This document shows, piece after piece, positions 28,752 to 64,000 of a DNA stretch of 64,000 nt (positions are counted from its first letter, which is position 1; every line of letters begins with the position of its first letter). Both the position numbers and the translations under genes were made by a program. Location: assembly GCA_964408995.1 (NCBI GenBank), contig CAYPBP010000004.1, positions 16,618-80,617 on the forward strand, given 5' to 3'. Under the pieces are notes generated by a model. That model did no database searches and was not told where the DNA came from. It was given only the letters and a program-made list of their open reading frames with translations. This DNA comes from an uncultured Gammaproteobacteria bacterium. Its GTDB lineage: Bacteria; Patescibacteriota; Microgenomatia; UBA12405.

Positions 28752-28810
28752 TAGAAAATGATAGCAAAAATAGATTAAAATGTCTTTTTGAGGTAAAATT
28801 CATTCTTAAT

Positions 28811-28894: not shown

Positions 28895-28916
28895 CTTTAA
28901 TTTTGATAAAGTATAA

Positions 28917-39996: not shown

Positions 39997-40080
39997 GGAG
40001 GAGTCGGATAGTGGTTCATTCCACAGACCTGGAAAGTCTGCGCTGTAAAAAGCTCGTGAGTTCGAATCTCACCTCCTCCG
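39997..40080 (+). tRNA. tRNA-Ser (anticodon GGA), class II
   Basis: GGAGGAG...CAGAC CTGGAAA GTCTG CGCTGTAAAAAGCTCG TGAGTTCGAATCTCA CCTCCTCC G. A TATAAT box lies 15 nt upstream. Confidence 0.85.
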
Positions 40081-40308
40081 CCGTATTTGAGTTGTTCCGT
40101 ATAGTTACGTGTAATATAGGCGATGCTACTCCTTCGAACTTTTCTTTTTTGTTCCTGTTAGGTTCAAATTTGGTTCCAGACTCACCACCTAACAGTGATG
40201 ATACTAAATATTTTATACTCATATGTTTGGCAGCCTTTAATAATAGACATATGGAAATAATAAAAAGTATTTGCAAATATATTAAAGACAGTATAGTAGA
40301 ATACTATT

Positions 40309-41396: not shown

Positions 41397-41876
41397 TCAC
41401 CAAAAAAAGATTAATATTAATATGATAAAAACTGTAATAAAAATAATCAATCTTTTTTTATAAGTTAATGTTTTTTTAGTTTCTTCCCAATGAATTTTTT
41501 TGCTTAACCAAAGGACGATAAAATTAAATATTGGAAAAAATAAAAATAGAACACAACTAAGAAATAAAGAAAGTAAAGGAAATAAAATAAAGTCAAAAAT
41601 TGAATTTGAAGAAAGGAATATCTGAATTAATAATAATATTATCGATACTAATAAAGTAAGAAGCCAGCTTGCTTTTTTACTTTTGTTAGAGATAAATTCA
41701 TTGAGGATAAAAGGAACCCTGATTATAAAAAATAACCCAAATAATAATCCGAAGAAACCAAATTCTGAATTTTCATTCCCAGGTTTTGAACTTATATAGC
41801 TAAAAACTATCATAATAAGAAAAAGCCAAAAAATAAGATCAAAAGAAAGAATATATTTAATTATCTTTTTCAACAT
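41397..41876 (-). CDS. Membrane protein paralogous to the N-terminal domain of 61694..62917
   Basis: The first 12 aa are near-identical (MLKKIIKYILSF). It shares blocks (VPFILNEFISNKSKK, PLLSLF, KKTLTY) with the SIMPL-domain protein at 61694. Confidence 0.6.
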   Translation of the reverse strand: MLKKIIKYILSFDLIFWLFLIMIVFSYISSKPGNENSEFGFFGLLFGLFFIIRVPFILNEFISNKSKKASWLLTLLVSIILLLIQIFLSSNSIFDFILFPLLSLFLSCVLFLFFPIFNFIVLWLSKKIHWEETKKTLTYKKRLIIFITVFIILILIFFW

Positions 41877-41895
41877 TAAGCAATAATAGCATTTA
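41842..41895 (-). repeat. IR-L, a 54-bp repeat inverted relative to 61675..61728 (52/54 identical), spanning the start codon
   Basis: Reverse complement taaatgctattattgcttaATGTTGAAAAAGATAATTAAATATATTCTTTCTTT versus plus strand taaatgctattattgcttaATGTTAAAAAAGATAATTAAATATATTTTTTCTTT. Confidence 0.85.
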
Positions 41896-41911
41896 ATCAG
41901 AGCTATATTAT

Positions 41912-43240
41912 TTATTTAACTTTGAATATTTGCTTGTCTTTAATCACAAATTTTGTCTTAAAAAGGCTTAGGATCTCTTGTTTTTCTTCTGAAAAACCAG
42001 TTTTTAGAACGTGAACGATATAATCTTTCATTCTTTCTTTATCTGACTTCTCTTTTATTATTGGATAGTCCATAATTTCAAATTGTTGGGTAAACATCTC
42101 TTGATGAAGAACATCCTCTCTTAATCGGTGATAATGTTCAATTTCCTCTCTTATTTTCTTATTAATAGCATCTTGATCAAACTCTATTTCGTCAATTTTA
42201 GACAATAGTTGATTAATTAAGTCATCTTCAGTGATATAAGGCTGGGTACAGTCATAATTTACTGATCGGCCGCAATGATAATAGACATATCGGTTAACTT
42301 TTCCATTAGTTAAATTCTTGTATTTCTCTTCAGCAGTTATTCCCCCTCCACATTGGCCACATTTAAATAAACCTTTGAAAGGAAAAACTTGTTTATTCCA
42401 GGATCTTGATGGGGCGATTAATTGTATTTGAGTTTTATCAAAAATTTCTTTAGTTATAATTGGTTTATGTTTTCCTTTGTAGAATTTACCTCCAAATTCA
42501 AATTCACCATAATAAAATGGATTTTTTAAGATTCGATAAATTTCTCCAATAGCTACTCTTTTACCAACTTTGGTTTTAAAACCACTTTTGTCTAGCCAAT
42601 ATTTAATCGTTCGTCCACTTTGGCCTTGATTGGCAGCTCTTTCAAATATTTCTTTAACAATTGGAGCTCTTTTTCTGTCAATTTCAATACAAGAAATTCT
42701 ATTTTCAGTTAATTTGTTAATATAACCAATTGGAGCTGATCCTGGCCTCCATCCTGCCTCACATTTAGCTCTAAGGCCTCTTTTAACGTTAATACCTCGA
42801 TTATCATTTTCTAGTTTGGCTTGAGAGCATAAAATCATTAAAAGAAACTTTTCATTTGGATTATTGGAAAATGATTGAGAAAAAGTTCGGATAATTTGTA
42901 GTTTCCTTTGATCCATTAAATCTACTAATGTTCCAAGATCGCCAGCATTTCTACTTAATCGGTCTGGTGCCCAAGTTAAAATGGCATCAAATTCTCCATT
43001 TCGGATATCAATTAAAAGTTTATTGAAGATTGGTCTTAACCCTGATGATTTAGCTGAATGGCTTTCTTGTCTAACTTCTTTAATAAATAATCCATCCCTG
43101 TTGGCTAAATCTTTCATCTCTTTAATTTGAGAATCGATTGACATAGCCTGTCGCTCGTCAGATTCGGTCGATTTTCGAGCATAAAGACAATAGTTTAACC
43201 GCTCATTTTCTTGGATAGTTCCATTTTTTTCATTTTTCAT
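41912..43240 (-). CDS. Large serine recombinase (resolvase/invertase catalytic domain, recombinase domain and Zn ribbon)
   Basis: YCLYARKSTESDERQAMSIDSQ (catalytic Ser motif), DRLSRN, and CGQCGGG...YYHCG as the Zn ribbon. Confidence 0.85.
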   Translation of the reverse strand: MKNEKNGTIQENERLNYCLYARKSTESDERQAMSIDSQIKEMKDLANRDGLFIKEVRQESHSAKSSGLRPIFNKLLIDIRNGEFDAILTWAPDRLSRNAGDLGTLVDLMDQRKLQIIRTFSQSFSNNPNEKFLLMILCSQAKLENDNRGINVKRGLRAKCEAGWRPGSAPIGYINKLTENRISCIEIDRKRAPIVKEIFERAANQGQSGRTIKYWLDKSGFKTKVGKRVAIGEIYRILKNPFYYGEFEFGGKFYKGKHKPIITKEIFDKTQIQLIAPSRSWNKQVFPFKGLFKCGQCGGGITAEEKYKNLTNGKVNRYVYYHCGRSVNYDCTQPYITEDDLINQLLSKIDEIEFDQDAINKKIREEIEHYHRLREDVLHQEMFTQQFEIMDYPIIKEKSDKERMKDYIVHVLKTGFSEEKQEILSLFKTKFVIKDKQIFKVK

Positions 43241-43282
43241 GATGGGACTATACCGCAGTAAAAATACTTATCAACTAGATGA

Positions 43283-44095
43283 TTATTCTTTACCATTTAA
43301 AATGTTTTCATTTGGCATTTTCCCATTATTCAATTTTTTCCAAAAGTCATACAATTTATCTTGTATTTCTTTAGGATTTTCTTCTTCTTTTCCAAAAAAC
43401 ATTGAAACCCATAGAATCGATTGAGACGCGGTGATTAAAGCCATTGAAATATCACCCTCAGCAATGCGTTCAAGTATCTCTTGATCAGATGATCCCTGTG
43501 TCCAAACATCAATAGAAGAAACATGATTTTTTCTATTTCCATGCATATATTCCTTCAATACAATTTGTTTTTGAAAATCTGGCATGTTAGTTTTTTGAGC
43601 AATAAAATCAATCATTCCTTCAATATCTAATCCTGCCCAGTTTTTTCTTCCTTTAGTTTCTTTTGATAATTTTAAATATTTTTCTTCAACTTCATTTCTG
43701 AAATTATCATCGACATGTAATTTGTTAAAATCTAAAAAATCGATATCAGCTTTATCTTCTACAGCAATATAATCTATTAATCTTTTAGAATATTTCGCCT
43801 TACCCTTAAGATTTATATAAACCATAGCAATACTATCTTCAAAGATTCTTCTTGATAAATCTAAAATTGATCCAGAAAAAACAATTAAATTCCCTCTATC
43901 TATTTTTATTTGATCAATCAAAACCAACATTGTTTGCATTGTGAAAAAATCTTTTCTAATAACACCTTCAAGGATCTGACCGAATAATTCTTTACACGTG
44001 TTTTTCTTCGGTATTAAAGGGTATATTATTTCGTATATTTCTTGAAATTTAAGATACAAACTATAGAAATCATTATCTTCAAACTTTTTTTTCAT
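43283..44095 (-). CDS. Hypothetical protein (island cargo)
   Basis: A 270-aa ORF with no recognisable motif. Confidence 0.4.
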   Translation of the reverse strand: MKKKFEDNDFYSLYLKFQEIYEIIYPLIPKKNTCKELFGQILEGVIRKDFFTMQTMLVLIDQIKIDRGNLIVFSGSILDLSRRIFEDSIAMVYINLKGKAKYSKRLIDYIAVEDKADIDFLDFNKLHVDDNFRNEVEEKYLKLSKETKGRKNWAGLDIEGMIDFIAQKTNMPDFQKQIVLKEYMHGNRKNHVSSIDVWTQGSSDQEILERIAEGDISMALITASQSILWVSMFFGKEEENPKEIQDKLYDFWKKLNNGKMPNENILNGKE

Positions 44096-44124
44096 CTCTA
44101 ATTTTATAACAAGAATTAAAAAAA

Positions 44125-44823
44125 TTAAATTTTTGTATCTAAAAGTCGACTAACAATACTTTCTACTTCCTCTTCTGTAATACCAAATTTAGTAGCTGTC
44201 TCTTTGGTTGATTTGGTTTCAGCTTCATAACTATCTGAAACACTTTCATATTTTTTATAAAGACTCATAGAATATTCATAAATTTCTTTTTCTCTGTCTG
44301 TTCCAGACACTTCCTTTTCTTGTGGTCCTAATTCTGGAGTTATTGTAATAGCTTTTCCATTTATTGCCTTTATCGAATCTTTACTTACTTCCCAAGTAAA
44401 AATTTGATCAAGACCTAGTGTTCTAAAAGAATAATCAACATTATATATTCCATCACTATTTAAAGATGCAGACCAACTTCCAGTTTTAGTAGTTGGATCA
44501 GCTTTCATTCCCTTTAATACTAAATTCTCTAAGTAAACAGAAACAGCCATTCCTTTTGTTGATTTATCTATGGTTTTTAAATCATTTTTTATTTCATAAT
44601 TTTTCAACATTGAAATTGCATCACTCTTAGTTAGAGATTCTGCTTTTTTAATTGATTTAGGCGTTGATGCTTGGTTTGCCACTTGTTCTTCTTTATATTG
44701 TTTTCCTTTCTCAAAAGCTTCTTTTGCATCTTTATTGCCAATATTTGAAATAGTTGTTAGTAATAATATAACCAAAAAAGCAGAAACTATTTTATGTCTT
44801 AAAAACCAATTCTTCTTTTTCAT
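44125..44823 (-). CDS. Secreted or membrane-anchored hypothetical protein
   Basis: An N-terminal signal/anchor (MKKKNWFLRHKIVSAFLVILLLTTISNI). Confidence 0.4.
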   Translation of the reverse strand: MKKKNWFLRHKIVSAFLVILLLTTISNIGNKDAKEAFEKGKQYKEEQVANQASTPKSIKKAESLTKSDAISMLKNYEIKNDLKTIDKSTKGMAVSVYLENLVLKGMKADPTTKTGSWSASLNSDGIYNVDYSFRTLGLDQIFTWEVSKDSIKAINGKAITITPELGPQEKEVSGTDREKEIYEYSMSLYKKYESVSDSYEAETKSTKETATKFGITEEEVESIVSRLLDTKI

Positions 44824-44950
44824 ATTTTTTATAAATTGTTAATTCAACATCATACTAACTGTGGCTTAGCACAAAGTCAAGGCTATGTTGTGCCTCTTTG
44901 CTAAGTCTGACTTAGTAGAGTATTGGTTTAACTTTTCATAGTCTTTTGGT

Positions 44951-45166
44951 ATGAGAAGTAATGCCAAATTAACCAAAACTATTTGTAAAAGAATTAAAAA
45001 ATATAGAAGTGACAGAGGTTTAACTCAGGAAGATTTAGCCGAAAAAGTTAGAGTTAGTCGAGTTTATATTGGCTATGTCGAGCAAGGCCGAAATACTCCA
45101 TCTTTGGAAGTTTTAGAAAAAATAGCTAAGTCTTTAAAGGTAGATGTTGGTGACCTTCTGAAATAA
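44951..45166 (+). CDS. XRE-family HTH regulator (candidate island repressor)
   Basis: LTQEDLAEKVRVSRVYIGYVEQGRNTPSLEVLEKIAKSL. Confidence 0.8.
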   Translation: MRSNAKLTKTICKRIKKYRSDRGLTQEDLAEKVRVSRVYIGYVEQGRNTPSLEVLEKIAKSLKVDVGDLLK

Positions 45167-45920
45167 ATATTAATTTCGGAAAGTATTTATAAAGATTTTT
45201 AATTATTTCCCCTCTTATTATTATCCTTTGATTTTCATAAATTACATTTGAAAAAATATTGTCTTGAATGTAATCTAAGTGTTCTTCTATTGTTTCTAAT
45301 ATTCTTTTTTCAAAAAATGTTTTTAAATAACTTTCTATAATAAAACCTTTCATAAATGGATCAACTGGAAAAGCTGACTTAAGGTTTATCTTCCTACAAT
45401 GTTTTCTAATTCCAGATAAGTCATGTAAACATTTAAAAAAATATAAATTTTCTTTTCCAAAGACATTGTCAAATAAATAATTATTAATCAATAAATCTAC
45501 TGTTATTGATAAAAAAAGATCCAACTCAAAATAAAGATAAAAACAAATATCTGAATATGTTGCTATTTTACCTAATACAACTGAATAAATTTTCATTTTA
45601 TGAACTTTTAATTTTGGATTTTTATTTATTTCATATCTATAAATCAATATAGAAATCTCATTGACTAATGCTAAAAATGTTAAATAATGAATTTTTGCCT
45701 CTAAATCTTCCAATTGAATCATTTTTATTAATTCAACCCATTGGTTAGTTTCACATCTATCACTTTCTTCTGTTTCACCAATCATTTCTTTTATTTCATC
45801 CATTCTGAAAATAGGAGCAGAATTATCTACTCTATAATAATTAGAAAAGATAAGGGATATCTTTTCTTTTGGCAAAAATTGTGGTTGTTTTATCTTTTTT
45901 TTAATTGTATTTGGTTTCAT
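45126..45920 (-). CDS. Hypothetical protein
   Basis: A 264-aa ORF. Its 3' end overlaps the XRE gene convergently by 40 nt. Confidence 0.35.
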   Translation of the reverse strand: MKPNTIKKKIKQPQFLPKEKISLIFSNYYRVDNSAPIFRMDEIKEMIGETEESDRCETNQWVELIKMIQLEDLEAKIHYLTFLALVNEISILIYRYEINKNPKLKVHKMKIYSVVLGKIATYSDICFYLYFELDLFLSITVDLLINNYLFDNVFGKENLYFFKCLHDLSGIRKHCRKINLKSAFPVDPFMKGFIIESYLKTFFEKRILETIEEHLDYIQDNIFSNVIYENQRIIIRGEIIKNLYKYFPKLIFISEGHQHLPLKT

Positions 45921-46432
45921 AATTTTTTTTTAAAAGCAGAAAACTTGGATAAAACTTCAATCTTTTTAGCCTCATTTTCATGATCTTTAATCTGACTTGA
46001 ACTATTAATAATTGATCTAAGGATATAAAAGAAAAACCTAGGAATTTTTCCTTTTATTACATTCTTGGATATTAACTGAAGTGCAGTTTCTGGATTTGAA
46101 GAAATAACAGTTTTTATTAGTTCTTGTTTATCTTTTTCAGAAAGATAAACTTTATTATTTGAATAACTAGGGTGATGATTATTAAGCCAATAAATAATTG
46201 CTGTCATATTTTTATCTTTAATAGCAGATATTAACTGTGATTCGGCGATGTCATTAATAAAAAGGTTGCCATATTTAATGGCTTCATCAGTTTTTTGCTT
46301 AAATTCTTTATTATTAGCGCGCCATCTATAATAACTAGCTCGACTGATATTGGTTATTTCACATGTTATCTGAACGATTGGTGTCTTTTTCAATTGTTCA
46401 ATTAATAGTTTTTTATCCTCATCGATTTTCAT
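45917..46432 (-). CDS. Small HTH-containing protein (IS3-OrfA / phage small-terminase-like SRASYYRW motif)
   Basis: ITCEITNISRASYYRWRANNKEF resembles HTH_Tnp/Psq-type motifs. It lies downstream of the ParB-methyltransferase gene, as in phage packaging modules. Confidence 0.35.
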   Translation of the reverse strand: MKIDEDKKLLIEQLKKTPIVQITCEITNISRASYYRWRANNKEFKQKTDEAIKYGNLFINDIAESQLISAIKDKNMTAIIYWLNNHHPSYSNNKVYLSEKDKQELIKTVISSNPETALQLISKNVIKGKIPRFFFYILRSIINSSSQIKDHENEAKKIEVLSKFSAFKKKL

Positions 46433-47742
46433 ATTTCTTTAGTTTTTGAAAATGATTGATAATTATTGACATATACAACATCATTATTAGTTATTTTTTT
46501 ATATCGAGAAATTATGAGATCACAAAATATTGGTTCAACTTCAGCCATCAGACATTTTCGTTTTAATTGTTCACAGCTACACATAGTTGAACCTGAGCCG
46601 GCAAATAAATCTAAAACTGTGTCTCCAACTCTAGTGCATCTTCTTATGGCTTTTTCGTGGAGAGTAGGACTCTTTTCAGTTGGATGAGTATATTCATTTC
46701 CAGGCAATCTTTTTATTAACCAAATATTTAATAAATCAAGAATATTGTCGATTGTTTGATTACCTGAGCCAATTTCTTTATTCATAATTTCGTTTAGATT
46801 CTTGGGATTTTCAGAAATTGGTGCTTTACCAATTGTTCCATAGACACACGCCTCGTAACTTTTATTAAAGGCAGTATTTGGTGTGGGTGAAAATCCGTTT
46901 TTTATCCATAAGCATACCCGTTTATTTTTTATTCCAATTTCCTTATACAAATCTTGAATTAAACCGATATTACACTCATCACTCCAAAAAAATATATGAC
47001 AATCTAATTTAGAAATAACTAATGCATTTTCAATTGTTTTTTTTAAAAAACTTCTATATTCTTTATCTGTTTTATTATCATTAGTCTTTCCTCCATATGT
47101 TCCCTTACCTCCAATCCCCTTATTATAATCAAGTGAAATGTTAAACGGAGGATCACAATAAACCATAGATACCTCTTTATTTGATGTCAGTTGATTAACA
47201 ACTGACAAGTCGGTACTATCACCACAAATCAACAGATGAGGACCAAGTTGAACAATATCGCCTAATTTAGTTCTTGGTTCCTTAATCTTTTCAATCTCTC
47301 TCTGCGTATCAAAATTATCATCTTCTGTGTCTAAATTTTTGTCCCAAATTTTTGATAAATCGCTATTATCAAAACCAATATTCATCAGCATTTCAACGTC
47401 GAAATTTTTTAATAAATCAAAATTCCACGTGCCAGTATTACGATTTAACCTAAGGTTCAACTCTTTTTCTCTTTCAATGTCTGGAATATTTATATAAATA
47501 ACTGGTATTTCCTTATACCCAAGCTGTTTAGCTATTTCTAGACGAAAATTTCCACCAATTACAATTCCTTGGCGATTCTCAGCAGAATTCACCAAAATTG
47601 GATCAACTATTCCAAAACGTTCAATACTCTCCTTGAGATTGTCTGATTGTTCCTTGCTCCAATGTCTTGGATTGTATTCGGGATTTTTTAAATTATTAAT
47701 ACGAACATTCTCTATCTTTATTTTCTCGTTTTTATCAGTCAT
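46429..47742 (-). CDS. ParB-like nuclease domain fused to an N6-adenine/N4-cytosine DNA methyltransferase (phage-type ParB-MTase)
   Basis: The N-terminus carries ParB motifs (GIVDPILV...VIGGNFRLEIAKQLG). The methyltransferase has motif IV DPPF (VYCDPPFNI) and a C-terminal motif I FAGSGST, the beta-class order. Confidence 0.8.
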   Translation of the reverse strand: MTDKNEKIKIENVRINNLKNPEYNPRHWSKEQSDNLKESIERFGIVDPILVNSAENRQGIVIGGNFRLEIAKQLGYKEIPVIYINIPDIEREKELNLRLNRNTGTWNFDLLKNFDVEMLMNIGFDNSDLSKIWDKNLDTEDDNFDTQREIEKIKEPRTKLGDIVQLGPHLLICGDSTDLSVVNQLTSNKEVSMVYCDPPFNISLDYNKGIGGKGTYGGKTNDNKTDKEYRSFLKKTIENALVISKLDCHIFFWSDECNIGLIQDLYKEIGIKNKRVCLWIKNGFSPTPNTAFNKSYEACVYGTIGKAPISENPKNLNEIMNKEIGSGNQTIDNILDLLNIWLIKRLPGNEYTHPTEKSPTLHEKAIRRCTRVGDTVLDLFAGSGSTMCSCEQLKRKCLMAEVEPIFCDLIISRYKKITNNDVVYVNNYQSFSKTKEI

Positions 47743-47796
47743 TGCGACCTCCTAATTCAATAAATAAAGCTCAGAGCCTTTCTAGTATCTCTGACT

Positions 47797-47882
47797 TATC
47801 TATCTCATTAGGTATTGCTAGAAACCTACATAAAAACATGGAATTATCTATCTATTATCTTTTGAAATTTCTTATCTATCTC
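47797..47882. promoter_or_regulatory. Three direct repeats of (C/A)TTATCTATCT in the divergent promoter region between the ParB-methyltransferase gene and the endonuclease gene
   Basis: Copies at 47797-47808, 47844-47855 and 47871-47882, read directly from the sequence. Confidence 0.45.
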
Positions 47883-48023
47883 TTATTCTTATCAATCTAT
47901 TTATTGTCGAACTAAACAATTGTACAACTTCTTAAGAAGAAAAGCTAATATGTAAAATCATCAAATTATTTTTTCAAATTAAATTTTGATTAGCAGTTTT
48001 AAAATCTTGATGGCGGTATAATT

Positions 48024-49448
48024 GTGGCAGAAACTATTAATCTAAATAAAATGATTGATAAATATCAAACAAAAAATCAAATTTTAAAAAAAGCAGAAAC
48101 AATTAAAAATAAATCTTTGCGCGAGGTAATTTCTAATGAAGCAATTAAAAATATTGAAAATCAAATCAGCGGATATGGTTTAAAACGTAAGGGTTTTTTA
48201 GGTGATTTAATAGAAAAATATTTTTTTGATATTAATCCAGGAAATATTAGTAAACCAGATTTTAATGTTGCTGGAGTTGAACTAAAAACTACTCCATTAA
48301 AAAGCCACTCACAAAAACAATATGTATCAAAAGAAAGATTAGTTTTTTCAATGATTAACTATGAATCTATTATTGATGAAAAATGGGAATCAAGTTCTTT
48401 CTTAAAGAAGAATAAATCATTATTATTAATGTTTTATTTGTGGATACAAAATCAAAGTATTCTTGAATATAAATTCAAACTTATTCATTTATTAGATTTA
48501 ATTGATGATATTTCTGATGAAGATAAATTTCAAATTCAAAAAGATTGGGAATACATCGTTGCAAAAATTAAAAGAGGTGAAGCCCATTTATTGTCTGAAG
48601 GTGATACATACTATCTTGGAGCTTCTACAAAAGCCACTAATAGCCAAGCAGTACGTAATCAACCATTAAATAATACGCCAGCAAAACCAAGAGCATTTTC
48701 ACTTAAACAGCAGTATATTAATTATCTTATTCAAACAAAATTACTTGGTAACACAATAAATACTGATTCTATATTCAAAAAACAAAGAAGATTAGAAACA
48801 ATTGAAGACGTAATTAAACAAAAATTCTCATTATTTATTGGAAAAACTGATAAAGAAATTTTAACTAGACTAAATTCTAATTTAGGTAAAAAATCAAAAA
48901 GCTATAAGCGATTAATTGTGAATAAAATTCTTGGAGTAAAATCCAATAAGATTGAGGAATTAGATAAAGCAAATGTAACACTTAGAGTTTTGACCTTGGA
49001 ACATACAGGTAATTTAAGAGAATCAATTTCATTTCCTGCTTTTGACTATAAGGATTTAGTGACACAAGTTTGGTATGACGATATAAAAGAAATAATGTCT
49101 GATTTTCATTTACAACTTGAAACTAAAAAATTTTTATTTGTCGTTTTTCAAAAACAAAAAGGAACAAAAAATATAATTTTAAAGAAAATAATATTTTGGA
49201 ATTTTCCAATGAGTGATATTGGTGAAGCTAAAAATGTGTGGCAAAAAACTGTTAATTGTATTAACGAAAATCGTTACAATGATTTACCAAAAACAAAGGA
49301 CAGTAAAATAGCACATGTACGCCCTCATGGAAAAAACTCTAAAGATACAATAGAAACTCCACAACACACACAAGAAATGAAGCGTTGTTTCTGGTTAAAT
49401 GCTAAATATATACAAAATGCCATAAATAACGATGAAAATGAAGCTTGA
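48024..49448 (+). CDS. Type II restriction endonuclease of the Sau3AI/MutH family (predicted GATC-specific)
   Basis: KGFLGDLIEKYF...KPDFNVAGVELKTTPL matches the MutH/Sau3AI catalytic D-x6-E-x-K block (DFAALGVELKTIP in MutH). The 474-aa two-domain size resembles Sau3AI. The GTG start at 48024 is uncertain; an alternative ATG lies at 48051. Confidence 0.75.
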   Translation: MAETINLNKMIDKYQTKNQILKKAETIKNKSLREVISNEAIKNIENQISGYGLKRKGFLGDLIEKYFFDINPGNISKPDFNVAGVELKTTPLKSHSQKQYVSKERLVFSMINYESIIDEKWESSSFLKKNKSLLLMFYLWIQNQSILEYKFKLIHLLDLIDDISDEDKFQIQKDWEYIVAKIKRGEAHLLSEGDTYYLGASTKATNSQAVRNQPLNNTPAKPRAFSLKQQYINYLIQTKLLGNTINTDSIFKKQRRLETIEDVIKQKFSLFIGKTDKEILTRLNSNLGKKSKSYKRLIVNKILGVKSNKIEELDKANVTLRVLTLEHTGNLRESISFPAFDYKDLVTQVWYDDIKEIMSDFHLQLETKKFLFVVFQKQKGTKNIILKKIIFWNFPMSDIGEAKNVWQKTVNCINENRYNDLPKTKDSKIAHVRPHGKNSKDTIETPQHTQEMKRCFWLNAKYIQNAINNDENEA

Positions 49449-49479
49449 TCAATTTGTTTTTATTTGTTAGAATGGCTTT

Positions 49480-50760: not shown

Positions 50761-50843
50761 TGTTTTTATTCCTAATTTTAATGTTGTAGTTAATCTTATA
50801 TTTTCATGATATCCTTTGTTATTAATAATAATGATTCAAATGT

Positions 50844-52106: not shown

Positions 52107-52111
52107 AATTT

Positions 52112-54073: not shown

Positions 54074-55055
54074 GTCACTTGGTAATCCAGAATTGACGAA
54101 AAAAATAATCAAAACTGTTTATCATTCAAGTAATCCTTTAAAGTTAAGTGATTTAATAATCATATGCAAATTAAGTGGTTATACATTTATTGATGTGGTT
54201 GAGAATAACATCAATATATTAGACCAATTGGGATTATTAAAAATAAATGGAGAGTTTGTAACGATTGGTAAAATCGAAGTAAAACACAACGAAGTTATTT
54301 ATGGAGATATTATTAAATTATTTTTGGATGAAATAACAAATATGGGGAAGTTGTTCGATATATTTAAACCAGAAGGAATATTTTTTGATAATAAATCTCA
54401 ACTCATAGGAATAAAACAAAATTATTTATCATTGAAACATTCTCAAATTAGAGATTTTTTAATTAATTTTGGTTTTTACTCTTCTAACATTGACAAATAT
54501 GATTATTTTATTGACAAGAAGTATGAAGATTACTTCAAAAACATTGTTAGTCTTTCAAAAAAAAAGGAGATTGCGAAAATTAATAAAAAAAATTTTACAT
54601 TAGAACAGTTAAACAGAATATTAGATATTAGAAATGAAATGGGTATGGAAGGTGAAAAAATTGCACTAGAATTTGAATTACTACGATTAGTTGGACATTC
54701 CTTAATCCAGGATATAAAAATTATTTCCGATATAAGTGTTAATAGAGGATATGACATTGTGTCTTTTGATGGACCAGAATCAAAAGAAATAGATAGATAT
54801 ATAGAAGTAAAGTCGTATAGAAATCAACCTAGATTTTTTTGGAGTGAAAATGAGGTCAGAACAGCTGAAAGATTAAGTGAAAAATACTATATATATTTGG
54901 TTAATTTAAGTGATAATAACCATGGAAATAATATTATTATAATCAAAGACCCATTTAAGCACGTATTTGAATCAGTAAACTGGAAAATATCTACAAGTAC
55001 TTGGGAAGTTAATAAAATTAATAATAAATATATTCAACAAACTAATGAATTTTAA
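54039..55055 (+). CDS. DUF3883-like (PD-(D/E)xK-type) domain protein
   Basis: The C-terminus GEKIALEFELLRLVGH...NRGYDIVSFDG...RYIEVKSY...FWSENEVRTAE...YYIYLV matches the DUF3883 pattern as I recall it. It overlaps the SNF2 gene by 35 nt in another frame. Confidence 0.6.
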   Translation: MSINLKQIINLRSLGNPELTKKIIKTVYHSSNPLKLSDLIIICKLSGYTFIDVVENNINILDQLGLLKINGEFVTIGKIEVKHNEVIYGDIIKLFLDEITNMGKLFDIFKPEGIFFDNKSQLIGIKQNYLSLKHSQIRDFLINFGFYSSNIDKYDYFIDKKYEDYFKNIVSLSKKKEIAKINKKNFTLEQLNRILDIRNEMGMEGEKIALEFELLRLVGHSLIQDIKIISDISVNRGYDIVSFDGPESKEIDRYIEVKSYRNQPRFFWSENEVRTAERLSEKYYIYLVNLSDNNHGNNIIIIKDPFKHVFESVNWKISTSTWEVNKINNKYIQQTNEF

Positions 55056-55092
55056 TAAAACTTTTTTTATCTGAATATCTAAATCAAAAAAA

Positions 55093-56619
55093 ATGAACAT
55101 TACCGCTTCAAAACTTTATAATTACATTCAATGTGAACATCGAATTTGGAGAGATATTTATGGCCCACAAGATGAAAAATCTAAGGATACAAATCCTTTT
55201 GTCCAAATGCTTTGGGATAAAGGTGTAGCTCATGAAGAAAACATTGTTGAAGGTTTAGGTCAGATTCTTAATTTAAAAGATGTCGGTACAGAAGAAGAAA
55301 AAATTCAAAAAACTATTGATGCAATGAAAATGGGTGTACCCCTTATTTACCAAGGAGTACTAAGAAATGGTGACTTGTTAGGTATCCCAGATTTACTACA
55401 AAATAATGGCGATGGAACATATTTACCTATCGATATTAAAAGTGGAATGGGAATAGAAGGTGTTGATGAAGAAAATGATAATGATGGAAAATATAAAAAG
55501 CATTATGCTGTTCAATTAGCACTTTATGTTGAAGTATTAATTGCAAATGGGTTTGCTAAAGAACATAAAGGAATGATTATTGATATTGATTCGGAAAAAG
55601 TAATTTATGACCTTGATCAAGAAATGGGGGCTAGAAATCCAATAACTTGGTGGCAGTATTATCAAGAAATAAAACTAAAGGCTACTAGTTTATTGCTAAA
55701 CGAAACTCAAAACAAACCAGCATATTCTGGTAAATGTAAACTATGTCCTTGGTATAAAAGTTGTAAAGATTGGATAAATAAAAAACATGATCCAAGTGCA
55801 ATTTTCTATGTAGGTCGGGCAATGAGAGATACTTTATTTAAAGATTTAGAAATAGAAAGTTATGAAGATATTATTAATATTGATGTTGAACAAGCACTAG
55901 AAAAAAAGAATAAAGAAAAAGGGTTTTTGTATCGAATTGGCAAAGACAGCTTAGAAAAATGCATTAAAAGAGCAAATGTAACAAATAATATTAAAAAACC
56001 AGTTGTTTATATTACCCCCGTCTTTCCAAAAACTTCTTACGAATTATTTTTTGATATTGAAGATGATCCAACTCAGTCTTTTATTTATTTACATGGTGTA
56101 TATGAAAGATCTCCAAAAGAAGAAAGATATGTTTCGTTTGTAGCTGAAGAAAAAACAGGTGCTTCCGAAAAAGAAGCTTGGCTTAATTTTTGGATTTATA
56201 TTAGATCATTACCTAAAGACGATTTTACTGTTTACTATTATTCTCACCACGAAAAAACAACTTACAAAAAAATGAGTCAAAAATATCCTGGGGTAGTAAG
56301 TGATGAAGAGTTAGAATGGTTTTTTAGTCCTGGAAAAGCGGTTGATTTATATTCTGATGTTATTCTAAAAAATACGGATTGGCCTCTAATGAGTTATTCA
56401 CTGAAAGATATTGCTCAATATTTAGACTTTAGTTGGAGAGACAAATCCCCTTCAGGTGCTATGTCAATCGAATGGTTTAATAAATATTTAGAAACTAAGG
56501 ATAAAAAAGATATGGATAGAATTTTGCTTTATAATGAAGATGATTGTAAAGCCACTATGGTTATTAAAGATTTTTTGATATTTCAAGCGATTAAGGAAAA
56601 TAATTATGAAAACAATTAA
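55093..56619 (+). CDS. Cas4/RecB-like Fe-S PD-(D/E)xK nuclease fused to an RNase-H-like (PolB-type) 3'-5' exonuclease domain (TM0106/YprB-like)
   Basis: An N-terminal Cys (YIQCEHRIW), then PIDIKSG (DxK), QLALYVEVL (QxxxY) and the C-terminal triad CKLCPWYKSC. The C-terminus FFDIEDDPTQSFIYLHGV resembles an Exo I motif. Confidence 0.6.
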   Translation: MNITASKLYNYIQCEHRIWRDIYGPQDEKSKDTNPFVQMLWDKGVAHEENIVEGLGQILNLKDVGTEEEKIQKTIDAMKMGVPLIYQGVLRNGDLLGIPDLLQNNGDGTYLPIDIKSGMGIEGVDEENDNDGKYKKHYAVQLALYVEVLIANGFAKEHKGMIIDIDSEKVIYDLDQEMGARNPITWWQYYQEIKLKATSLLLNETQNKPAYSGKCKLCPWYKSCKDWINKKHDPSAIFYVGRAMRDTLFKDLEIESYEDIINIDVEQALEKKNKEKGFLYRIGKDSLEKCIKRANVTNNIKKPVVYITPVFPKTSYELFFDIEDDPTQSFIYLHGVYERSPKEERYVSFVAEEKTGASEKEAWLNFWIYIRSLPKDDFTVYYYSHHEKTTYKKMSQKYPGVVSDEELEWFFSPGKAVDLYSDVILKNTDWPLMSYSLKDIAQYLDFSWRDKSPSGAMSIEWFNKYLETKDKKDMDRILLYNEDDCKATMVIKDFLIFQAIKENNYENN

Positions 56620-57859
56620 AGTATCAATACAAGATGTAAACACACTATTACTTCTAGAGGATGGTCAAAAAGGAGACATAATTGATCTTAAGTCTATTCA
56701 TGATACAGATATTGATAAAACAACAATTGATAATCTTATAAAAGAAATCAGGAACGATGAGTTTAATACACAATTAGAGTCGGCAAAACGGAATATTGAA
56801 AAAGAAAAGTCTCTTGAAGCAGAAATCAAAGAGAAGGATATTATAAATAAAGCTAAAGAGGCACTTACAAAGAAAGATCAGGAAATCATAGCTCTCAACA
56901 TAAAAGTCGAAAACATCGCAAAGCAGGTTGAATCGGATGCTAAGATCAAAGCCCTGGAAGAGAAAAAATATTTAGAGGATGAGTATAGACAAAAAATATC
57001 CGAAAAGGATACCGAGGTTCAAGAAATTAAACATCAAAAAGAACTAAGCGATCAAAAATATCAAGATCAACTCAAAGCAAGCGAAACTGCTTTAGTTTCA
57101 CTAAAAGAAATGCGCTCCAGAATGAGCACTAAGATGATTGGTGAATCATTAGAGACTCACTGTGAGAATGAATTTAATAAACTTCGACCACTTGCCTTTC
57201 CTAATGCTAAATTTAATAAAGATAATCAGATATCGGACTCTGGATCTAAAGGTGATTATGTTTATCGAGAGTCAGACGATGATGGCAACGAAATTCTATC
57301 AATTATGTTTGAAATGAAAAATGAAGATAATGCAACTACTACTAAGAAAAAGAATAAGGACTTTTTCAAAGAATTGGACAAAGACCGACGTGAGAAAAAC
57401 TGTGAATATGCGGTTTTGGTTAGCCTTCTTGAAAAAGATAATGAATACTATGACGATATAGTTAATGTCTCTGATTATCCCAACATGTATTCTATCCGAC
57501 CTCAACATTTTATAACTATAATTGGCTTTTTGCGCCAAGGTAATCTAAAATCCCAAGAATTGAGAAAAACTATTTTTATTCTTAAGAATCAAAATATCGA
57601 TGTAACTAATTTTGAGGCTAATATGAATGCATTTAAAGATGCCTTTGATAGAAACTATAATTTAGCTTCAGAACAATTTAGTGACGCTATTAAAGAAATC
57701 GACATTACTATTAAGCACCTTAATAAAGTGAGGGAGAACTTACTTAAATCTGATAACAACCTAAGGCTAGCCAACAGTAAAACATCAGAATTAACAATAA
57801 AAAAATTAACGGCTAATAGTCCGAGTGTTGCCAAGGCATTTGAGGATAATACTAAATAG
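56606..57859 (+). CDS. Coiled-coil protein with a C-terminal PD-(D/E)xK-like region (DUF2130/RmuC-like)
   Basis: A long coiled coil followed by GESLE...F...KGDYVYRE...ILSIMFEMKNE (D...ExK). The overall pattern is as in DUF2130/RmuC. It overlaps the upstream gene by 14 nt. Confidence 0.5.
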   Translation: MKTIKVSIQDVNTLLLLEDGQKGDIIDLKSIHDTDIDKTTIDNLIKEIRNDEFNTQLESAKRNIEKEKSLEAEIKEKDIINKAKEALTKKDQEIIALNIKVENIAKQVESDAKIKALEEKKYLEDEYRQKISEKDTEVQEIKHQKELSDQKYQDQLKASETALVSLKEMRSRMSTKMIGESLETHCENEFNKLRPLAFPNAKFNKDNQISDSGSKGDYVYRESDDDGNEILSIMFEMKNEDNATTTKKKNKDFFKELDKDRREKNCEYAVLVSLLEKDNEYYDDIVNVSDYPNMYSIRPQHFITIIGFLRQGNLKSQELRKTIFILKNQNIDVTNFEANMNAFKDAFDRNYNLASEQFSDAIKEIDITIKHLNKVRENLLKSDNNLRLANSKTSELTIKKLTANSPSVAKAFEDNTK

Positions 57860-58032
57860 TAAAAGATTACTATAACTGGTCACGATTGTTATTTTTGTAA
57901 TTATAAAAAAGTAACTTAAGAGATTGAATAAGACTTTATTTTAAAATAAATTGAGTAATTTTATTCATAGTAGTAAGATAGGCCAATAGATTAGCTGGTA
58001 GTTTGATCTAATAAATAATTTTGATTAAATAA

Positions 58033-59850
58033 GTGGCACAAATATATCCAGACATAAAAAATATTAATAAGTTAAAGGTCCGACCTACTTCAGGAGAATG
58101 TCAACTTTTAAATTTTTTAATAAAAAATCTTTCTAATGATTTTGAGGTATATTTTCAACCTTATATTAACGGAGATAGACCAGATATAGTTATTGTAAAA
58201 AAGAATTCAGGAGTTTTAATTATTGAAGTTAAAGATTGGAATTTGGGTAGTTACGAAATTGATAGTAATAAAAATTGGTATTTAAAGAAAATACAAAATA
58301 ATAGAGGACAAAAACAGATTATTAAATCACCCATATCTCAGGTTAAAGAATATAAAAATAATCTTTACAATCTACATATTGAAAATTTATTAGAAAGAAA
58401 GATAAATGACCCAAAATATTTTTCAATTGTTAATTGTGCTGTGTATTTTAGTAATGCTACCAAAAATGAAATTAATATTTTTTTTGAAAAAGAATTTAAA
58501 ACAGAAAATCAAGATCTGAAATATATTGATTTATTAGGAAAAGATGATTTAACTTTAGAAAAATTTAATAAAGTTTTATCAAAACGTCGATTAAACACAA
58601 AATCACATTTATTTGATGAAGAATTATATAACAGTTTTAAAAGGTTTTTCCAACCTCCAATTCACACTTTGGAGGAAGGAACTGAAATTAAATATTCTCC
58701 AAAACAAACTGAATTATCACAAAGCATGGTGGTTCAACAAAAAATTAAAGGTTTTGCTGGAAGTGGAAAAACTATACTTCTTGCCAAAAGAGCAGTTAAT
58801 TCCCATAAAAGAACCTCTTCAAAAGTCTTGATTTTAACCTACAATATAAGTCTTAAGAATTATATACACGATAAAATAAGTGATGTAAGGGAAGAATTTG
58901 AATGGAAATATTTTAATATTTCTAATTATCATCAATTTATTAATTCTGAAACAAATAACTTAAACATTTGTATTAAAAAACTTGAATCTTATGAAGACTT
59001 AAATTTATTTAATGGTTATGAAAATCAAATAGAAAAATATAAAACTATATTAATAGATGAAGTACAAGATTACAGAACACAATGGATACAAATACTGAAG
59101 AAATATTTTCTTGATGAAGATGGAGAGTTTGTAGTTTTTGGAGACGAAAAACAAAATATTTATAAAAGAATTTTAGATCAAGACAAAAAACCAAATACTA
59201 CTATTCCAGGTAGATGGATTGAGTTAAAAGAGTCTTTTAGACTAAGCGAAAAAATAATACATTTATCAACTAGATTTCAAAAATATTTCTTTAAAGAAAA
59301 ATATGATCTGGATGTAACCGAAAACATTGAACAGCATACTTTATTTTCTGAAGAGAATATAAAACATTATTTTTTCAAAAAAAAAGAATTATTACCAATA
59401 ATTAGCCAAATATCAAAAATAATAAAAGAAAAGAAAATCCATCCTAATAATATTTGTTTTCTTTCATCTAAAAAAGAAATATTAAGAGATATTGATTTTG
59501 AAATAAGAAACTCTTTTAAAGAACACACTAAAACAACGTTTGCAACAAAAGAAAGGTTTGAATCTCTAAAAAAAGAAAATGATATTAATTTTAAAAAAGT
59601 ATTAAAAGGTATTGATAAAAACAAGAAATTTAATTTTTGGATGAATGATGGAACAATGAAATTATCAACAATACATAGCTTTAAAGGATGGGAAATACCA
59701 ACACTATTCTTAATTATAAATAATAATGATGATGTTGATGAATTAATTTACACTGCTATAACAAGATGTAGATACAATTTGTTCATTATCAATATTGGAA
59801 ATCAAAAATATTATGATTTTTTTGAAAAAAATAAAGATTTGTTAAATTAA
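58033..59850 (+). CDS. NERD-domain nuclease fused to an SF1 (UvrD/AAA_19-like) helicase
   Basis: The N-terminus GECQLLNFL...GDRPDIVIVKKNSGVLIIEVKDW is a NERD domain. It has Walker A GFAGSGKT, Walker B ILIDEVQDY and a C-terminal UvrD_C-like GWEIPTLFLI. Confidence 0.7.
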   Translation: MAQIYPDIKNINKLKVRPTSGECQLLNFLIKNLSNDFEVYFQPYINGDRPDIVIVKKNSGVLIIEVKDWNLGSYEIDSNKNWYLKKIQNNRGQKQIIKSPISQVKEYKNNLYNLHIENLLERKINDPKYFSIVNCAVYFSNATKNEINIFFEKEFKTENQDLKYIDLLGKDDLTLEKFNKVLSKRRLNTKSHLFDEELYNSFKRFFQPPIHTLEEGTEIKYSPKQTELSQSMVVQQKIKGFAGSGKTILLAKRAVNSHKRTSSKVLILTYNISLKNYIHDKISDVREEFEWKYFNISNYHQFINSETNNLNICIKKLESYEDLNLFNGYENQIEKYKTILIDEVQDYRTQWIQILKKYFLDEDGEFVVFGDEKQNIYKRILDQDKKPNTTIPGRWIELKESFRLSEKIIHLSTRFQKYFFKEKYDLDVTENIEQHTLFSEENIKHYFFKKKELLPIISQISKIIKEKKIHPNNICFLSSKKEILRDIDFEIRNSFKEHTKTTFATKERFESLKKENDINFKKVLKGIDKNKKFNFWMNDGTMKLSTIHSFKGWEIPTLFLIINNNDDVDELIYTAITRCRYNLFIINIGNQKYYDFFEKNKDLLN

Positions 59851-59897
59851 TTCTTTAAAATCCAGCCATAAGTTTATTTAAATGTTAATATTGCTTA

Positions 59898-61640
59898 ATG
59901 GTAAAAAGGATAATTAATAAAATTATGTCTAAGTTAAAAATAATAATAATCTTATTTTCTTTAGTATTGATAAGTGTGTTTTTACTATTATTCCCTGCTT
60001 TTTATTTTAATAAGCTTGAATTTCAAATGAAATCAATTTATTCATCAATAGAATCTGTTAAAGGGGCATCTTTTGATAATGTTGAGCAAAGAAGTGGTCG
60101 AGAAGGAGGTCTAAAATCAAACGAAGAATATGAATATTATTCTGGTCTAATTAATGAGAATTTAAATAAAATGGATTCTCTTATTAATGACCATCAGAAT
60201 CTATTAGAAAAACAAGCTAAGATTACTTTTCTTTTGCCACCAAAATATAAAAAATACTACGGTCTTAAAAAGGAAGCCTTTGATAAGTATTATTTATCAT
60301 TAAGAGATTATAAAAAAGTCAAAGAATCTGAGAGTATTTTTTATTATGTATTAACAGAGCAAATCAAGTTCTCTAGTTTCATGAGAGATACTAGTGGTGG
60401 TAAAGATATAAGTATAGATTCTTTAAAAGAAGTAATTAACAAACTTCAAAAACTACAAATAAGTATTAAAGAAAATTTTGAAAAAGGTCTTTTAACTGAA
60501 AATTTTAATGATAAAGTGCCTAAAAAAATAAGTGTTTTTATTAGTGTTTACAATGTCGTGTTAGATTGGAAAGAAAAATTAGTTACAGATGATGAATTTT
60601 GGAATAAAATACTAAAAATAATAGACAACGATAATAATAACAAAGGTTATGATGTAGTAGAAATTATTTATGACTCAAGAATTAAAATTACTGATGTTAA
60701 AGGAAAAGAATGGATAAATCTTTATGACACATCAATAGAATTATCAAATAAAGCATCAGAATATTATTATAGTAATAAACTTTCTGATGATAATTTAAGT
60801 AAAATACTGTCAATTTATAATAAAAATTATCCTGAAAATAAAGAAAATAAAAACGATACAAAAATAGAAGAAAAATATATTGATTTAAACGGTGATGGTC
60901 AACAAGAAGTCCTACAGATAACAAGTAAAAATAGTAATGAAGCATATCCAGAGCTTATTTTGATTGCTTTTGATAAAAACAAGAAAGAAATTGGTAGATT
61001 ACCAGATAATTTTCCTGCCATAGATATACCTTTATCTAATACAGCCAGAGTATATACTCCAATTAAAAAAGATAAAAAACAATTTGTAAGTCTTGAATTT
61101 ATTCTTGGACCACATTCATCAGAGACCATGTTTTTTGGTTTATTCAAGTCGAAAGATGGAAATATGGGTATCATTCCAGTATGTTTAACTGATGATGTTG
61201 AAGATGCTAGAGATTGTTTATTTTGGTCTGGTGAAGTTGGTGATTTATGGGCTGATGATTATGATAAAGATGGGGTATTGGAAGTAGTGGAAATGGTTGA
61301 TGAATATCCAAAAGATGGACCATTAACTGATGAAATTAAAAATATCACCAATGAAACATTTGGAAAATTAGGCCAAAAAGCTAGTGATGGTGCTTTAAGG
61401 GTTTTAAAAAGAGAACAAGGTGGTAGAGGAAATAAGGTTATTTGGGCAATCTATAAATATAATGACAAATATTTTGAGAAACAATTAGGAAAAGATTACG
61501 ATAAATATTATGTTTTAGCGAAAGATCAGATTAGTAGTCTGTGGACTAAATATCCAAAAATAATTAAAAAGAGTGAGATAAGTAAAGATTCGTTGGAATA
61601 CAATGAATTTTTAAGAAACTATTGGCATGGAAATATGTAA
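59898..61640 (+). CDS. Membrane-anchored hypothetical protein whose 5' leader and N-terminus resemble 61694 and 41876
   Basis: One TM helix then a large low-complexity extracytoplasmic region. The 5' 46 nt are about 83% identical to IR-R. Confidence 0.45.
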   Translation: MVKRIINKIMSKLKIIIILFSLVLISVFLLLFPAFYFNKLEFQMKSIYSSIESVKGASFDNVEQRSGREGGLKSNEEYEYYSGLINENLNKMDSLINDHQNLLEKQAKITFLLPPKYKKYYGLKKEAFDKYYLSLRDYKKVKESESIFYYVLTEQIKFSSFMRDTSGGKDISIDSLKEVINKLQKLQISIKENFEKGLLTENFNDKVPKKISVFISVYNVVLDWKEKLVTDDEFWNKILKIIDNDNNNKGYDVVEIIYDSRIKITDVKGKEWINLYDTSIELSNKASEYYYSNKLSDDNLSKILSIYNKNYPENKENKNDTKIEEKYIDLNGDGQQEVLQITSKNSNEAYPELILIAFDKNKKEIGRLPDNFPAIDIPLSNTARVYTPIKKDKKQFVSLEFILGPHSSETMFFGLFKSKDGNMGIIPVCLTDDVEDARDCLFWSGEVGDLWADDYDKDGVLEVVEMVDEYPKDGPLTDEIKNITNETFGKLGQKASDGALRVLKREQGGRGNKVIWAIYKYNDKYFEKQLGKDYDKYYVLAKDQISSLWTKYPKIIKKSEISKDSLEYNEFLRNYWHGNM

Positions 61641-61674
61641 AATATTAATTCTGTAAGCAAATTTATATTTTAAA

Positions 61675-61728
61675 TAAATGCTATTATTGCTTAATGTTAA
61701 AAAAGATAATTAAATATATTTTTTCTTT
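61675..61728 (+). repeat. IR-R, the partner of IR-L (41842..41895)
   Basis: See IR-L. Confidence 0.85.
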
Positions 61729-62917: not shown

Positions 62918-62937
62918 TTAATAAAGGTTATTATTTA

Positions 62938-63915: not shown

Positions 63916-64000
63916 AAGATTAATTATGTAGATAAATTTCTAGTCTAGTGTTTAAAAATTCTTTTAAAGCTTTTATTGTAGATCGAATAACTACTATAAA

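Follow-up and report, generated by a model that had tools for sequence, protein, structure and literature searches.

The window analyzed here, a 64-kb stretch of contig CAYPBP010000004.1, contains the two arms of a 54-bp inverted repeat (IR-L and IR-R), which frame a large serine recombinase (LSR) gene and a string of anti-phage genes. With moderate confidence, we interpret this locus as a strain-variable defense island standing between two paralogous flanking genes, the arms of the repeat being the putative promoter and the first codons of these paralogs. A sequence-only reading of the same DNA had suggested that the arms might be sites at which the neighboring LSR inverts the whole island, a proposal that we find improbable for the reasons given below. 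The host DNA has about 30% G+C, and its named relatives are Candidatus Roizmanbacteria and Shapirobacteria, members of the Patescibacteria or candidate phyla radiation (CPR).

The repeat itself was confirmed. The reverse complement of IR-L (41842 to 41895) matches IR-R (61675 to 61728) at 52 of 54 positions, with perfect stretches of 24 and 21 nt, and each arm comprises 19 nt of leader followed by 35 nt of coding sequence, the ATG lying at 41876 on the minus strand and at 61694 on the plus strand. Since no other inverted repeat between 38 and 64 kb was longer than 53 nt or more than ~81% identical, such a match is far beyond chance. The similarity extends beyond the 54 nt (78% over 117 nt) because the genes that start in the arms are paralogous. 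Indeed, m159, the 159-aa protein encoded from IR-L, shares 46% identity over 145 aligned residues with residues 1 to 143 of the 407-aa protein encoded from IR-R, and 42% when the first 12 residues are excluded. The figure of about 40% given previously for the two paralogs is thus roughly right, although it applies only to the N-terminal ~143 residues of the 407-aa protein, the remainder of which is a SIMPL/DUF541 region.

Most homologs of the 407-aa protein are 251-aa proteins made of SIMPL only, and an unfused 260-aa relative that is 78% identical (L095, 3516 to 4298) lacks the membrane domain and starts with MLEMFKK, which aligns with the internal MEMIKK of the 407-aa protein. The 407-aa protein is therefore a fusion, specific to this lineage, of a rare four-helix membrane domain to SIMPL/DUF541. 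Only three matches to the membrane domain were retrieved with HMMER from 1.84 billion representative proteins, namely, m159 and two stand-alone proteins of 175 and 124 aa, and a word-indexed search with the 159-aa protein returned nothing except itself. Searches for the exact 407-aa and 580-aa proteins of the window found no record, a search with the 325-aa protein encoded downstream of the 407-aa gene gave one 2.3-kb contig only, and more distant SIMPL and PerM relatives showed no synteny with the window.

A third, weaker copy of the leader and start lies at 59873 to 59930, at the beginning of a gene for a 580-aa protein and, as previously noted, in direct orientation relative to IR-R. Its identity to IR-R is 81%, and the longest run of identical bases is 12. 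The exact 12-mer TATTGCTTAATG occurs in the window at the three arm and third-copy positions only, a profile search for the arm motif gave further matches that were all very weak, and a degenerate form of both leader and start is seen at the 325-aa gene (62938). With three copies in 64 kb and three representatives of the protein domain among the 1.84 billion proteins, the motif is not one that recurs across a large, scattered family, the outcome that had been named as fatal to a recombinational role. Exact-pattern scans of the GTDB species genomes and of the JGI metagenomes gave 0 matches each, with no extra copy and no empty site.

Two divergent strings of genes fill the segment between the arms, one running on the minus strand from 47742 to 41912 and the other on the plus strand from 48024 to 61640. 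On the left, m159 lies directly downstream of the LSR gene and on the same strand, the LSR open reading frame (ORF) ending 16 nt from IR-L, in line with the adjacency described before; on the right, the 407-aa gene lies directly downstream of the 580-aa gene, again on the same strand. The arms are therefore the starts of the last genes in the two divergent strings. As sequence marks of the joins, the LSR gene ends in ...AAGTTAAATAAATAATATAGCTCTGAT, and past the leader the body of the 407-aa gene reads TTTCTTTCCACCCTAC... and that of m159 TTTCTTTTGATCTTAT.... No terminator-like hairpin was found near either arm.

Strains were compared by means of short contigs from public read sets (Logan), the only source in which this lineage is present. 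On the right-hand side, contig L003 is 96.8% identical to the window from 61675 to 64000, with the homology starting exactly at 61675, and for L004 and L005, which are 83% identical, it starts at 61669 to 61671. Upstream of these points, L003 carries genes for an Eco57I-like methylase, a PD-(D/E)XK nuclease, a helicase, an SLFN/AlbA_2 protein, and a 204-aa protein; L004 carries a type I restriction-modification (R-M) system, GmrSD, and a helix-turn-helix (HTH) protein; and L005 carries a DUF2779 gene. On the left-hand side, L002 shows 0 differences from the window between 41359 and 41885, one at 41886, and 0 from there to 41950, and past this point 42 differences in 504 nt (8%) inside the LSR gene. 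Taken together, the breakpoints in L002 to L005 indicate that both repeat-bearing genes are conserved flanks and that the content between them is exchanged. The earlier proposal that the repeats edge a variable segment is thereby supported at both ends, at 61669 to 61675 and from 41951 onward. L001 and L002 cross the LSR-side junction, both in the orientation of the window. L003 to L006 cross the start of a 402- or 407-aa gene and have other cargo, with the LSR upstream in 0 of 4.

Within the right flank, the leader and the first ~300 nt of the gene (window 61675 to 61990 versus L003 6488 to 6800) are ~10% divergent, and the remainder of the gene is ~2% divergent (98 to 100% identical), which suggests a homologous crossover inside the 407-type gene between the window and L003. 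Downstream of the 402/407-aa gene, L003 (8973 to 10300) and L005 (1804 to 2794) contain small ORFs on different strands that match FtsK alpha, gamma, and motor domains; these ORFs may be the pieces of a broken FtsK gene, or they may belong to a further mobile element.

The cargo on the plus strand of the window starts with a type II R-M pair. The string that follows (50844 to 59850) encodes a 420-aa protein that could not be assigned, an SNF2 helicase, a NOV_C/PD-T4-1-like protein, a Cas4-like PD-(D/E)XK protein together with an RNase H-like nuclease, a DUF2130 protein, and a NERD+UvrD helicase. Defense families were enriched according to PADLOC (REase_II, MTase_II, ZorD/DrmD-like SNF2, PD-T4-1-like, Cas4-like, and NERD+UvrD).

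If the arms are the 5' ends of two paralogs, their near identity has to be explained by what these 5' ends do. In all alleles, the leader consists of an extended -10-like box (TGCTATTAT) located 6 nt ahead of the ATG. A Shine-Dalgarno-like site precedes 6 of the 52 window ORFs of at least 150 aa, and TATAAT-like hexamers are found 5 to 11 nt before many starts, suggesting that leaderless or very short-leader mRNAs are widespread in this organism; the arm leader would accordingly be placed as a promoter at leaderless distance. The coding part of the arm specifies the peptide MLKKIIKYI(L/F)SF (codons 1 to 12), which recurs as MLRKIIDFIFSL in a distant stand-alone homolog (P0155). In most ortholog and paralog pairs the same 54 nt are 91 to 98% identical, with window versus L003 as the exception (~89%), and this holds no matter where in its range of 50 to 80% the identity of the remaining membrane domain falls. 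At identical residues, the same codon is used in 8 of 10 cases in the arm, compared with 32 of 53 elsewhere in the domain (Fisher P = 0.21). Codon use in the arm is therefore not unusually conserved, and the identity of the DNA follows from peptide conservation and codon bias. Furthermore, the sites of serine integrases are built of inverted repeats around a short core (PMC5499854), and no internal dyad symmetry was found in the 54-bp motif, in which the best candidate (12/20) was equaled by 65% of shuffled sequences. These data point to ordinary selection as the source of arm conservation, and not, as had been inferred from the contrast between the arms and the diverged gene bodies, to upkeep as a recombination substrate.

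The minus-strand string ends with the LSR. This 442-aa protein has a Resolvase domain (PF00239; E = 2.5e-22; residues 19 to 163), a Recombinase domain (PF07508; E = 3e-16), and a Zn_ribbon_recom domain (PF13408; E = 8e-11) and matches the integrase family phrog_95 (E = 7e-67). Its nearest solved structure is SPbeta SprA/YokA (9dxh), with the catalytic serine aligned (YARKS versus YLRRS). From its domains and family, the LSR is thus classified as a phage-type serine integrase. At least 385 relatives with 50 to 77% identity were found in GTDB (one genome per species), nearly all of them in Patescibacteria; the locus counts given hereafter rest on 80 loci (L014 to L093) fetched among these 385 relatives.

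A gene for a ParB-methylase (a fusion of a ParB N domain and an N6-N4 DNA methyltransferase) and an adjoining gene resembling that of the small terminase subunit (TerS) are found upstream of the LSR in 37 of the 80 loci, as in the window. In 27 of the 80, a ~520-aa gene for the large terminase subunit (TerL; phrog_38, E = 4e-78) stands between these two genes and the LSR; TerL is absent from the window. The XRE-type protein occurs in 19 of the 80, with 55 to 83% identity among those listed. In the window, its ORF overlaps the start of a 264-aa gene on the opposite strand, and the surrounding ~330 nt are 74 to 78% identical in distant relatives. None of the small ORFs of the module could be assigned to a family, and no candidate for a recombination directionality factor was identified. 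IMG/VR viral contigs (L097 to L110) show the same gene order as the module. No phage structural gene was found among the ORFs of the window, which thus lacks the set of terminase, portal, capsid, tail, and lysis genes that characterizes an intact prophage. A literature search combining Patescibacteria and serine recombinase found no paper.

Several observations concern the distribution of this module. The combination of ParB-methylase, TerS-like protein, TerL, XRE protein, and LSR is widespread in Patescibacteria, usually beside R-M genes. L107 (64 to 2623) harbors two convergent integrase copies back to back; on CAZIZX010000003.1 (L018, L024, and L032), two modules face each other across a tRNA cluster; and some contigs hold two or three integrase copies. 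Several pairs of loci (e.g., L083/L090, 94% identical) share only the integrase gene and ~40 nt upstream of it, so that the integrase gene seems, on these alignments, to move or recombine as a unit.

Homology between the window and the LSR relatives stops at 41921 to 41928. The modules of L017 (1997 to 7314) and L018 (1079 to 7311) are 93 to 96% identical, but their host tRNA flank is only 76% identical, indicating recent transfer. At the LSR end of this pair, homology is lost 27 nt short of the LSR stop codon; at the opposite end it extends to 134 nt upstream of the ParB-methylase gene, and the flanks beyond either limit are unrelated. In nine other pairs, homology stops 10 to 36 nt before the LSR stop codon, so the last integrase codons are supplied by the flank. 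These breakpoints agree with that of L002 and argue for an LSR-side attachment junction at ~41921 to 41950, which would fall within the last LSR codons, ~30 to 55 nt from IR-L and outside the arm. No shared attP/attB core and no far junction was identified. By comparison with L017 and L018, the far end of the module may lie near 47.8 to 48.0 kb, which would make the module ~6 kb long and the 13.6-kb defense string a separate neighbor. In the same region (47707 to 47899), four TTATCTATCT-type direct repeats precede the ParB-methylase gene and reach into its start; being iteron-like, they may serve a protein of the module as binding sites.

Two candidate end sequences were considered and rejected, an inner symmetry of AAGCAAAT plus TTAAATAAAT at both ends, which was no better than in shuffled sequences, and a resemblance to the terminal 25-mer of L017/L018, which was no better than random genomic matches.

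The tRNA-Ser(GGA) gene does lie 1.8 kb outside the island, as stated in the sequence-only reading, but setting it aside for this reason was premature. The LSRs that are 72 to 77% identical to that of the window (L014, L016, L017, and L018), as well as L034 and L035, are all located 0.2 to 2.9 kb from a convergent tRNA-Ser(GGA), and a convergent tRNA follows the LSR within a few kilobases in most of 47 loci scanned. The identity of the tRNA tracks the LSR clade, with Ser(GGA) for the 72 to 77% relatives and Ser(GCT), Glu, or Lys for others, and the distance between module and tRNA is usually 0.2 to 3 kb. The host gene before the tRNA is also conserved among relatives. After the tRNA follows a block of ~125 nt that is conserved across genera (L014, L016, L017, and L018), ends at ~40207, and contains invariant stretches such as TTGTTCCTGTT and GTTCCAGAC. 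No Rfam family matched it, and the consensus structure predicted for it is weak, at -4 kcal/mol, and shows hardly any covariation. The block might act in regulation, encode an RNA on the opposite strand, or serve the integrase as a target region. No partial copy of the tRNA or of this downstream block was found elsewhere in the window. For orthologs of the adjacent PerM transporter with 68 to 71% identity, the neighbors are not conserved. Relatives also show synteny for a set of four tRNA genes, Ser(GCT), Arg(GCG), Ser(CGA), and Ser(GGA), which spans 12 kb here (27609 to 28895 and 39997 to 40082) and ~3.5 kb in L016 (7861 to 11476).

Table 1. Coordinates of the features of the island and its surroundings in the window
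Feature	Position	Strand	Basis or remark
tRNA-Ser(GGA), conserved landmark of this LSR clade	39997..40082	+	ARAGORN, Rfam
Conserved ~125-nt block after the tRNA, host side	40083..40207	+	Aligns with L014 to L018 loci
AI-2E/PerM-type transporter, between tRNA block and m159	40309..41331	+	PF01594, E = 5.6e-56
m159, stand-alone four-helix membrane N domain, left conserved flank	41397..41876	-	Paralogy; identical in L001 and L002
IR-L: extended -10-like box, ATG, codons 1 to 12 of m159	41842..41895	-	Repeat comparison
LSR, phage-integrase type, 442 aa	41912..43240	-	Pfam, phrog_95
Putative LSR-proximal attachment junction, end of mobile module	41921..41950	-	Comparative breakpoints; last ~10 LSR codons
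Two genes with no assigned function (270 aa and 232 aa), in LSR module	43283..44823	-	ORFs; both identical in L001
71-aa XRE-type HTH ORF, repressor-like	44951..45166	+	ORF; opposite strand within module
264-aa gene with no assigned function	45126..45920	-	Sits where relatives carry the large terminase gene
171-aa HTH protein resembling small terminase subunit (TerS)	45917..46432	-	phrog_309, E = 1.2e-5 (weak)
ParB-N-domain/N6-N4 DNA methyltransferase fusion, first gene of module	46429..47742	-	Pfam; phrog_498, E = 6e-88
Iteron-like direct repeats (CTTATCTATCTC and variants), divergent intergenic region	47795..47899	.	Repeat search; candidate far end of ~6-kb module
Type II R-M pair: MutH/Sau3AI-like endonuclease and C5 cytosine methylase	48024..50760	+	Pfam; PADLOC REase_II E = 6e-73, MTase_II E = 2e-162
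Defense-type string	50844..59850	+	Pfam, PADLOC
Third, weaker leader and start copy (type-2 leader, MVKRI...)	59873..59930	+	81% identical to IR-R
580-aa membrane-anchored protein, no family match	59898..61640	+	ORF, Pfam, PADLOC
IR-R: extended -10-like box, ATG, codons 1 to 12 of 407-aa gene	61675..61728	+	Left edge is the breakpoint of strain homology
407-aa fusion of membrane N domain and SIMPL/DUF541, right conserved flank	61694..62917	+	Pfam
325-aa membrane-anchored protein, in conserved flank	62938..63915	+	96% identical in L003

Our favored interpretation would then run as follows. The arms would be the homologous 5' ends of two paralogs facing away from each other across a variable island, and they would be kept nearly identical by ordinary purifying selection on the -10 box and on the N-terminal peptide. 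Two kinds of content would stand between these flanks in the window. The first would be a partly decayed, phage-derived integrative module of ~6 kb, formed by the ParB-methylase, the small-terminase-like protein, the XRE repressor, two or three unassigned genes, and the large serine integrase, and the attachment junction of this module would fall within the final codons of the integrase gene. The 13.6-kb string of anti-phage genes would be the second. Strains would exchange what stands between the two flanking genes.

Several points weigh against this interpretation. Four independent comparisons place the breakpoint no more than ~6 nt from the edge of the leader that faces the island, and a site-specific event at that edge would give the same result; the intergenic spacers here are only 20 to 60 nt long, which limits the force of the breakpoint argument. 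Likewise, a recombination site conserved across these strains would yield the same pattern of conservation. A two-hexamer promoter scan does not flag the leader because it has no -35 box. m159 is closer to the L004 and L005 alleles (53 to 55% at the protein level and 73 to 74% at the DNA level) than to the 407-aa gene with which it shares a genome (46% and 66%), so that transfer or unequal rates must be part of its history. A single pair of loci, L017/L018, supplies the analogy from which the far end of the module is set. Finally, a type-2 leader followed by MVKRI (38 nt, 92% identical) precedes two unrelated genes, that of the 580-aa protein in the window (59873 to 59915) and that of the 204-aa protein in L003 (5850 to 5887), and to judge from this alignment it looks like a portable junction. 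Both proteins are membrane anchored, and their genes occupy equivalent positions, each immediately preceding the 407-aa gene.

The strongest alternative, which we nevertheless consider unlikely, is that the whole segment is a single LSR-borne island of 19.8 kb (~41925 to 61674), with an integrase backbone and a defense cargo, that landed in the divergent spacer between the paralogs. The leaders would then be host DNA on either side of the att site and would provide a natural two-fold symmetry. This is in agreement with the coincidence of both edges of strain variation with the arms, with the location of the LSR-proximal junction only ~30 to 55 nt from IR-L, and with the fact that LSR attP sites are themselves inverted repeats around a short core (PMC5499854). 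In addition, R-M genes adjoin the ParB-methylase gene in L017, L018, L023, L024, and L058, so that the cargo may belong to the element; for this reason a single 19.8-kb element stays a serious rival. However, L017 and L018, the only pair that is informative on this point, share an element that reaches 134 nt upstream of the ParB-methylase gene, past which their restriction genes differ. Furthermore, the window, L003, L004, and L005 show no conservation in the 25 to 40 nt on the island side of 61675, where an attP arm shared by related elements should be conserved, the candidate inner symmetry and terminal motif mentioned above did no better than chance, and the LSRs that are 72 to 77% identical lie by the same tRNA with unrelated flanking genes. 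We thus prefer to regard module and defense string as separate contents of one variable island between paralogous flanks.

Recent gene conversion, or RecA-dependent exchange, could also have homogenized the 54-nt patch as a by-product of the paralogy, with a rare RecA-mediated inversion as a possible consequence. The sharp contrast at the nucleotide level between the arms (96%) and the gene bodies (~60 to 66%) would fit such an event, and the perfect stretches, of 24 and 21 nt, are close to the shortest that RecA can use for exchange. However, orthologs from different strains and species, which are out of reach of intragenomic conversion, are just as conserved over the 54 nt, the L004 allele is as close to the arm of the window as IR-L is, and the conservation of the peptide in distant homologs indicates selection. 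We therefore regard homogenization as improbable.

We attribute a similarly low probability to the possibility that the leader and start motif is a genuine recombination site, either because the two inverted arms make up a symmetric landing pad for an LSR-borne defense island, allowing its 19.8 kb to flip, or as a cassette junction for the exchange of membrane-protein and defense genes. The cassette version draws on the observation that type-1 and type-2 leaders precede unrelated genes in different strains.

Programmed inversion, or a shufflon, is the least probable of the explanations considered. The arms would be the sites at which the LSR or another recombinase flips the 19.8 kb, and the direct third copy would permit deletion of the 580-aa gene. 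The arms are indeed near-perfect inverted repeats of att-site length next to a recombinase gene, they bound the variable segment, the leader looks portable in that it precedes unrelated genes, and recombinases of defense islands can be invertases, with PinQ as an example (PMC12529663). However, serine integrases recombine two different sites, attP and attB, and recombination of attL with attR needs a directionality factor (PMC5737554), so two near-identical sites are not the usual substrate. The arms also lack internal dyad symmetry. The adjacent enzyme is a 442-aa integrase-type LSR, and not a dedicated small invertase or an Rci-type recombinase. It belongs to an integrase family (phrog_95) whose element ends fall elsewhere, in the LSR gene itself. 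In the 80 related LSR loci the repeat pattern is absent: no inverted repeat was found between the region downstream of the LSR and the 6 kb upstream, and no m159-like gene follows the LSR, the same-strand genes found there being unrelated to m159. All this speaks against the invertase role assigned to the LSR in the sequence-only reading, and the promoter swapping envisaged there lacks support for another reason. Each arm includes the promoter-like box and the ATG, with the gene body beyond it, and therefore a flip would change little in expression; it would regenerate the same joins and the same pairing except for residue 10 (L/F). Finally, L001 and L002 are in the orientation of the window, L003 to L006 have no LSR upstream of the 402/407-aa gene, and the third copy has at most 12 contiguous bases identical to IR-R.

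With respect to known systems, the locus resembles defense islands and integration hotspots in having variable R-M, helicase, and nuclease genes between conserved flanks, here with an integrase at the edge and a tRNA 1.8 kb away. It differs from them in that the flanks are head-to-head paralogs framing the island with a 54-bp inverted repeat and in that the host belongs to the Patescibacteria (CPR). The LSR shares with the phiC31, Bxb1, and SPbeta SprA integrases the three-domain architecture, the catalytic serine, the location of the integrase gene at the end of the element, and the absence of long direct repeats. Unlike in the elements of these integrases, TerL is lost here, there are no structural genes, and the att junction appears to be inside the 3' codons of the integrase gene. 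Inverted repeats at gene 5' ends, a serine recombinase nearby, and a defense context recall Hin, Gin, Cin, and PinQ, the Rci shufflon, and the vsa and hsd loci of Mycoplasma. However, these systems use a small serine invertase or a tyrosine recombinase, and their inversions move promoter or coding segments, whereas here the enzyme is a serine integrase of the large type, and after an inversion each gene would still have an identical promoter and start. Finally, the integrase, the repressor, and the TerS-like protein (with TerL in relatives) beside variable defense genes are reminiscent of phage satellites and decayed prophages (PICI-like and P4-like). This likeness is one of gene content only, no helper phage, capsid-redirecting genes, or evidence of induction being known here.

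Were the arms to recombine after all, the locus would offer a rare instance of an entire defense island being inverted by a large serine recombinase, and the landing-pad or cassette-junction version would amount to a new kind of site use by such an enzyme, in a CPR bacterium. If, on the other hand, the arms are the 5' ends of paralogs under ordinary selection, the locus would be another hotspot of defense genes, in the Patescibacteria/CPR, whose mobile elements are poorly described. As by-products, the analysis would then provide evidence for an att junction in the integrase's own 3' end and for leaderless or short-leader promoters in this genome, and it would bring to light a compact ParB-methylase/TerS/TerL/XRE/large serine integrase module located near tRNA genes in hundreds of CPR genomes.

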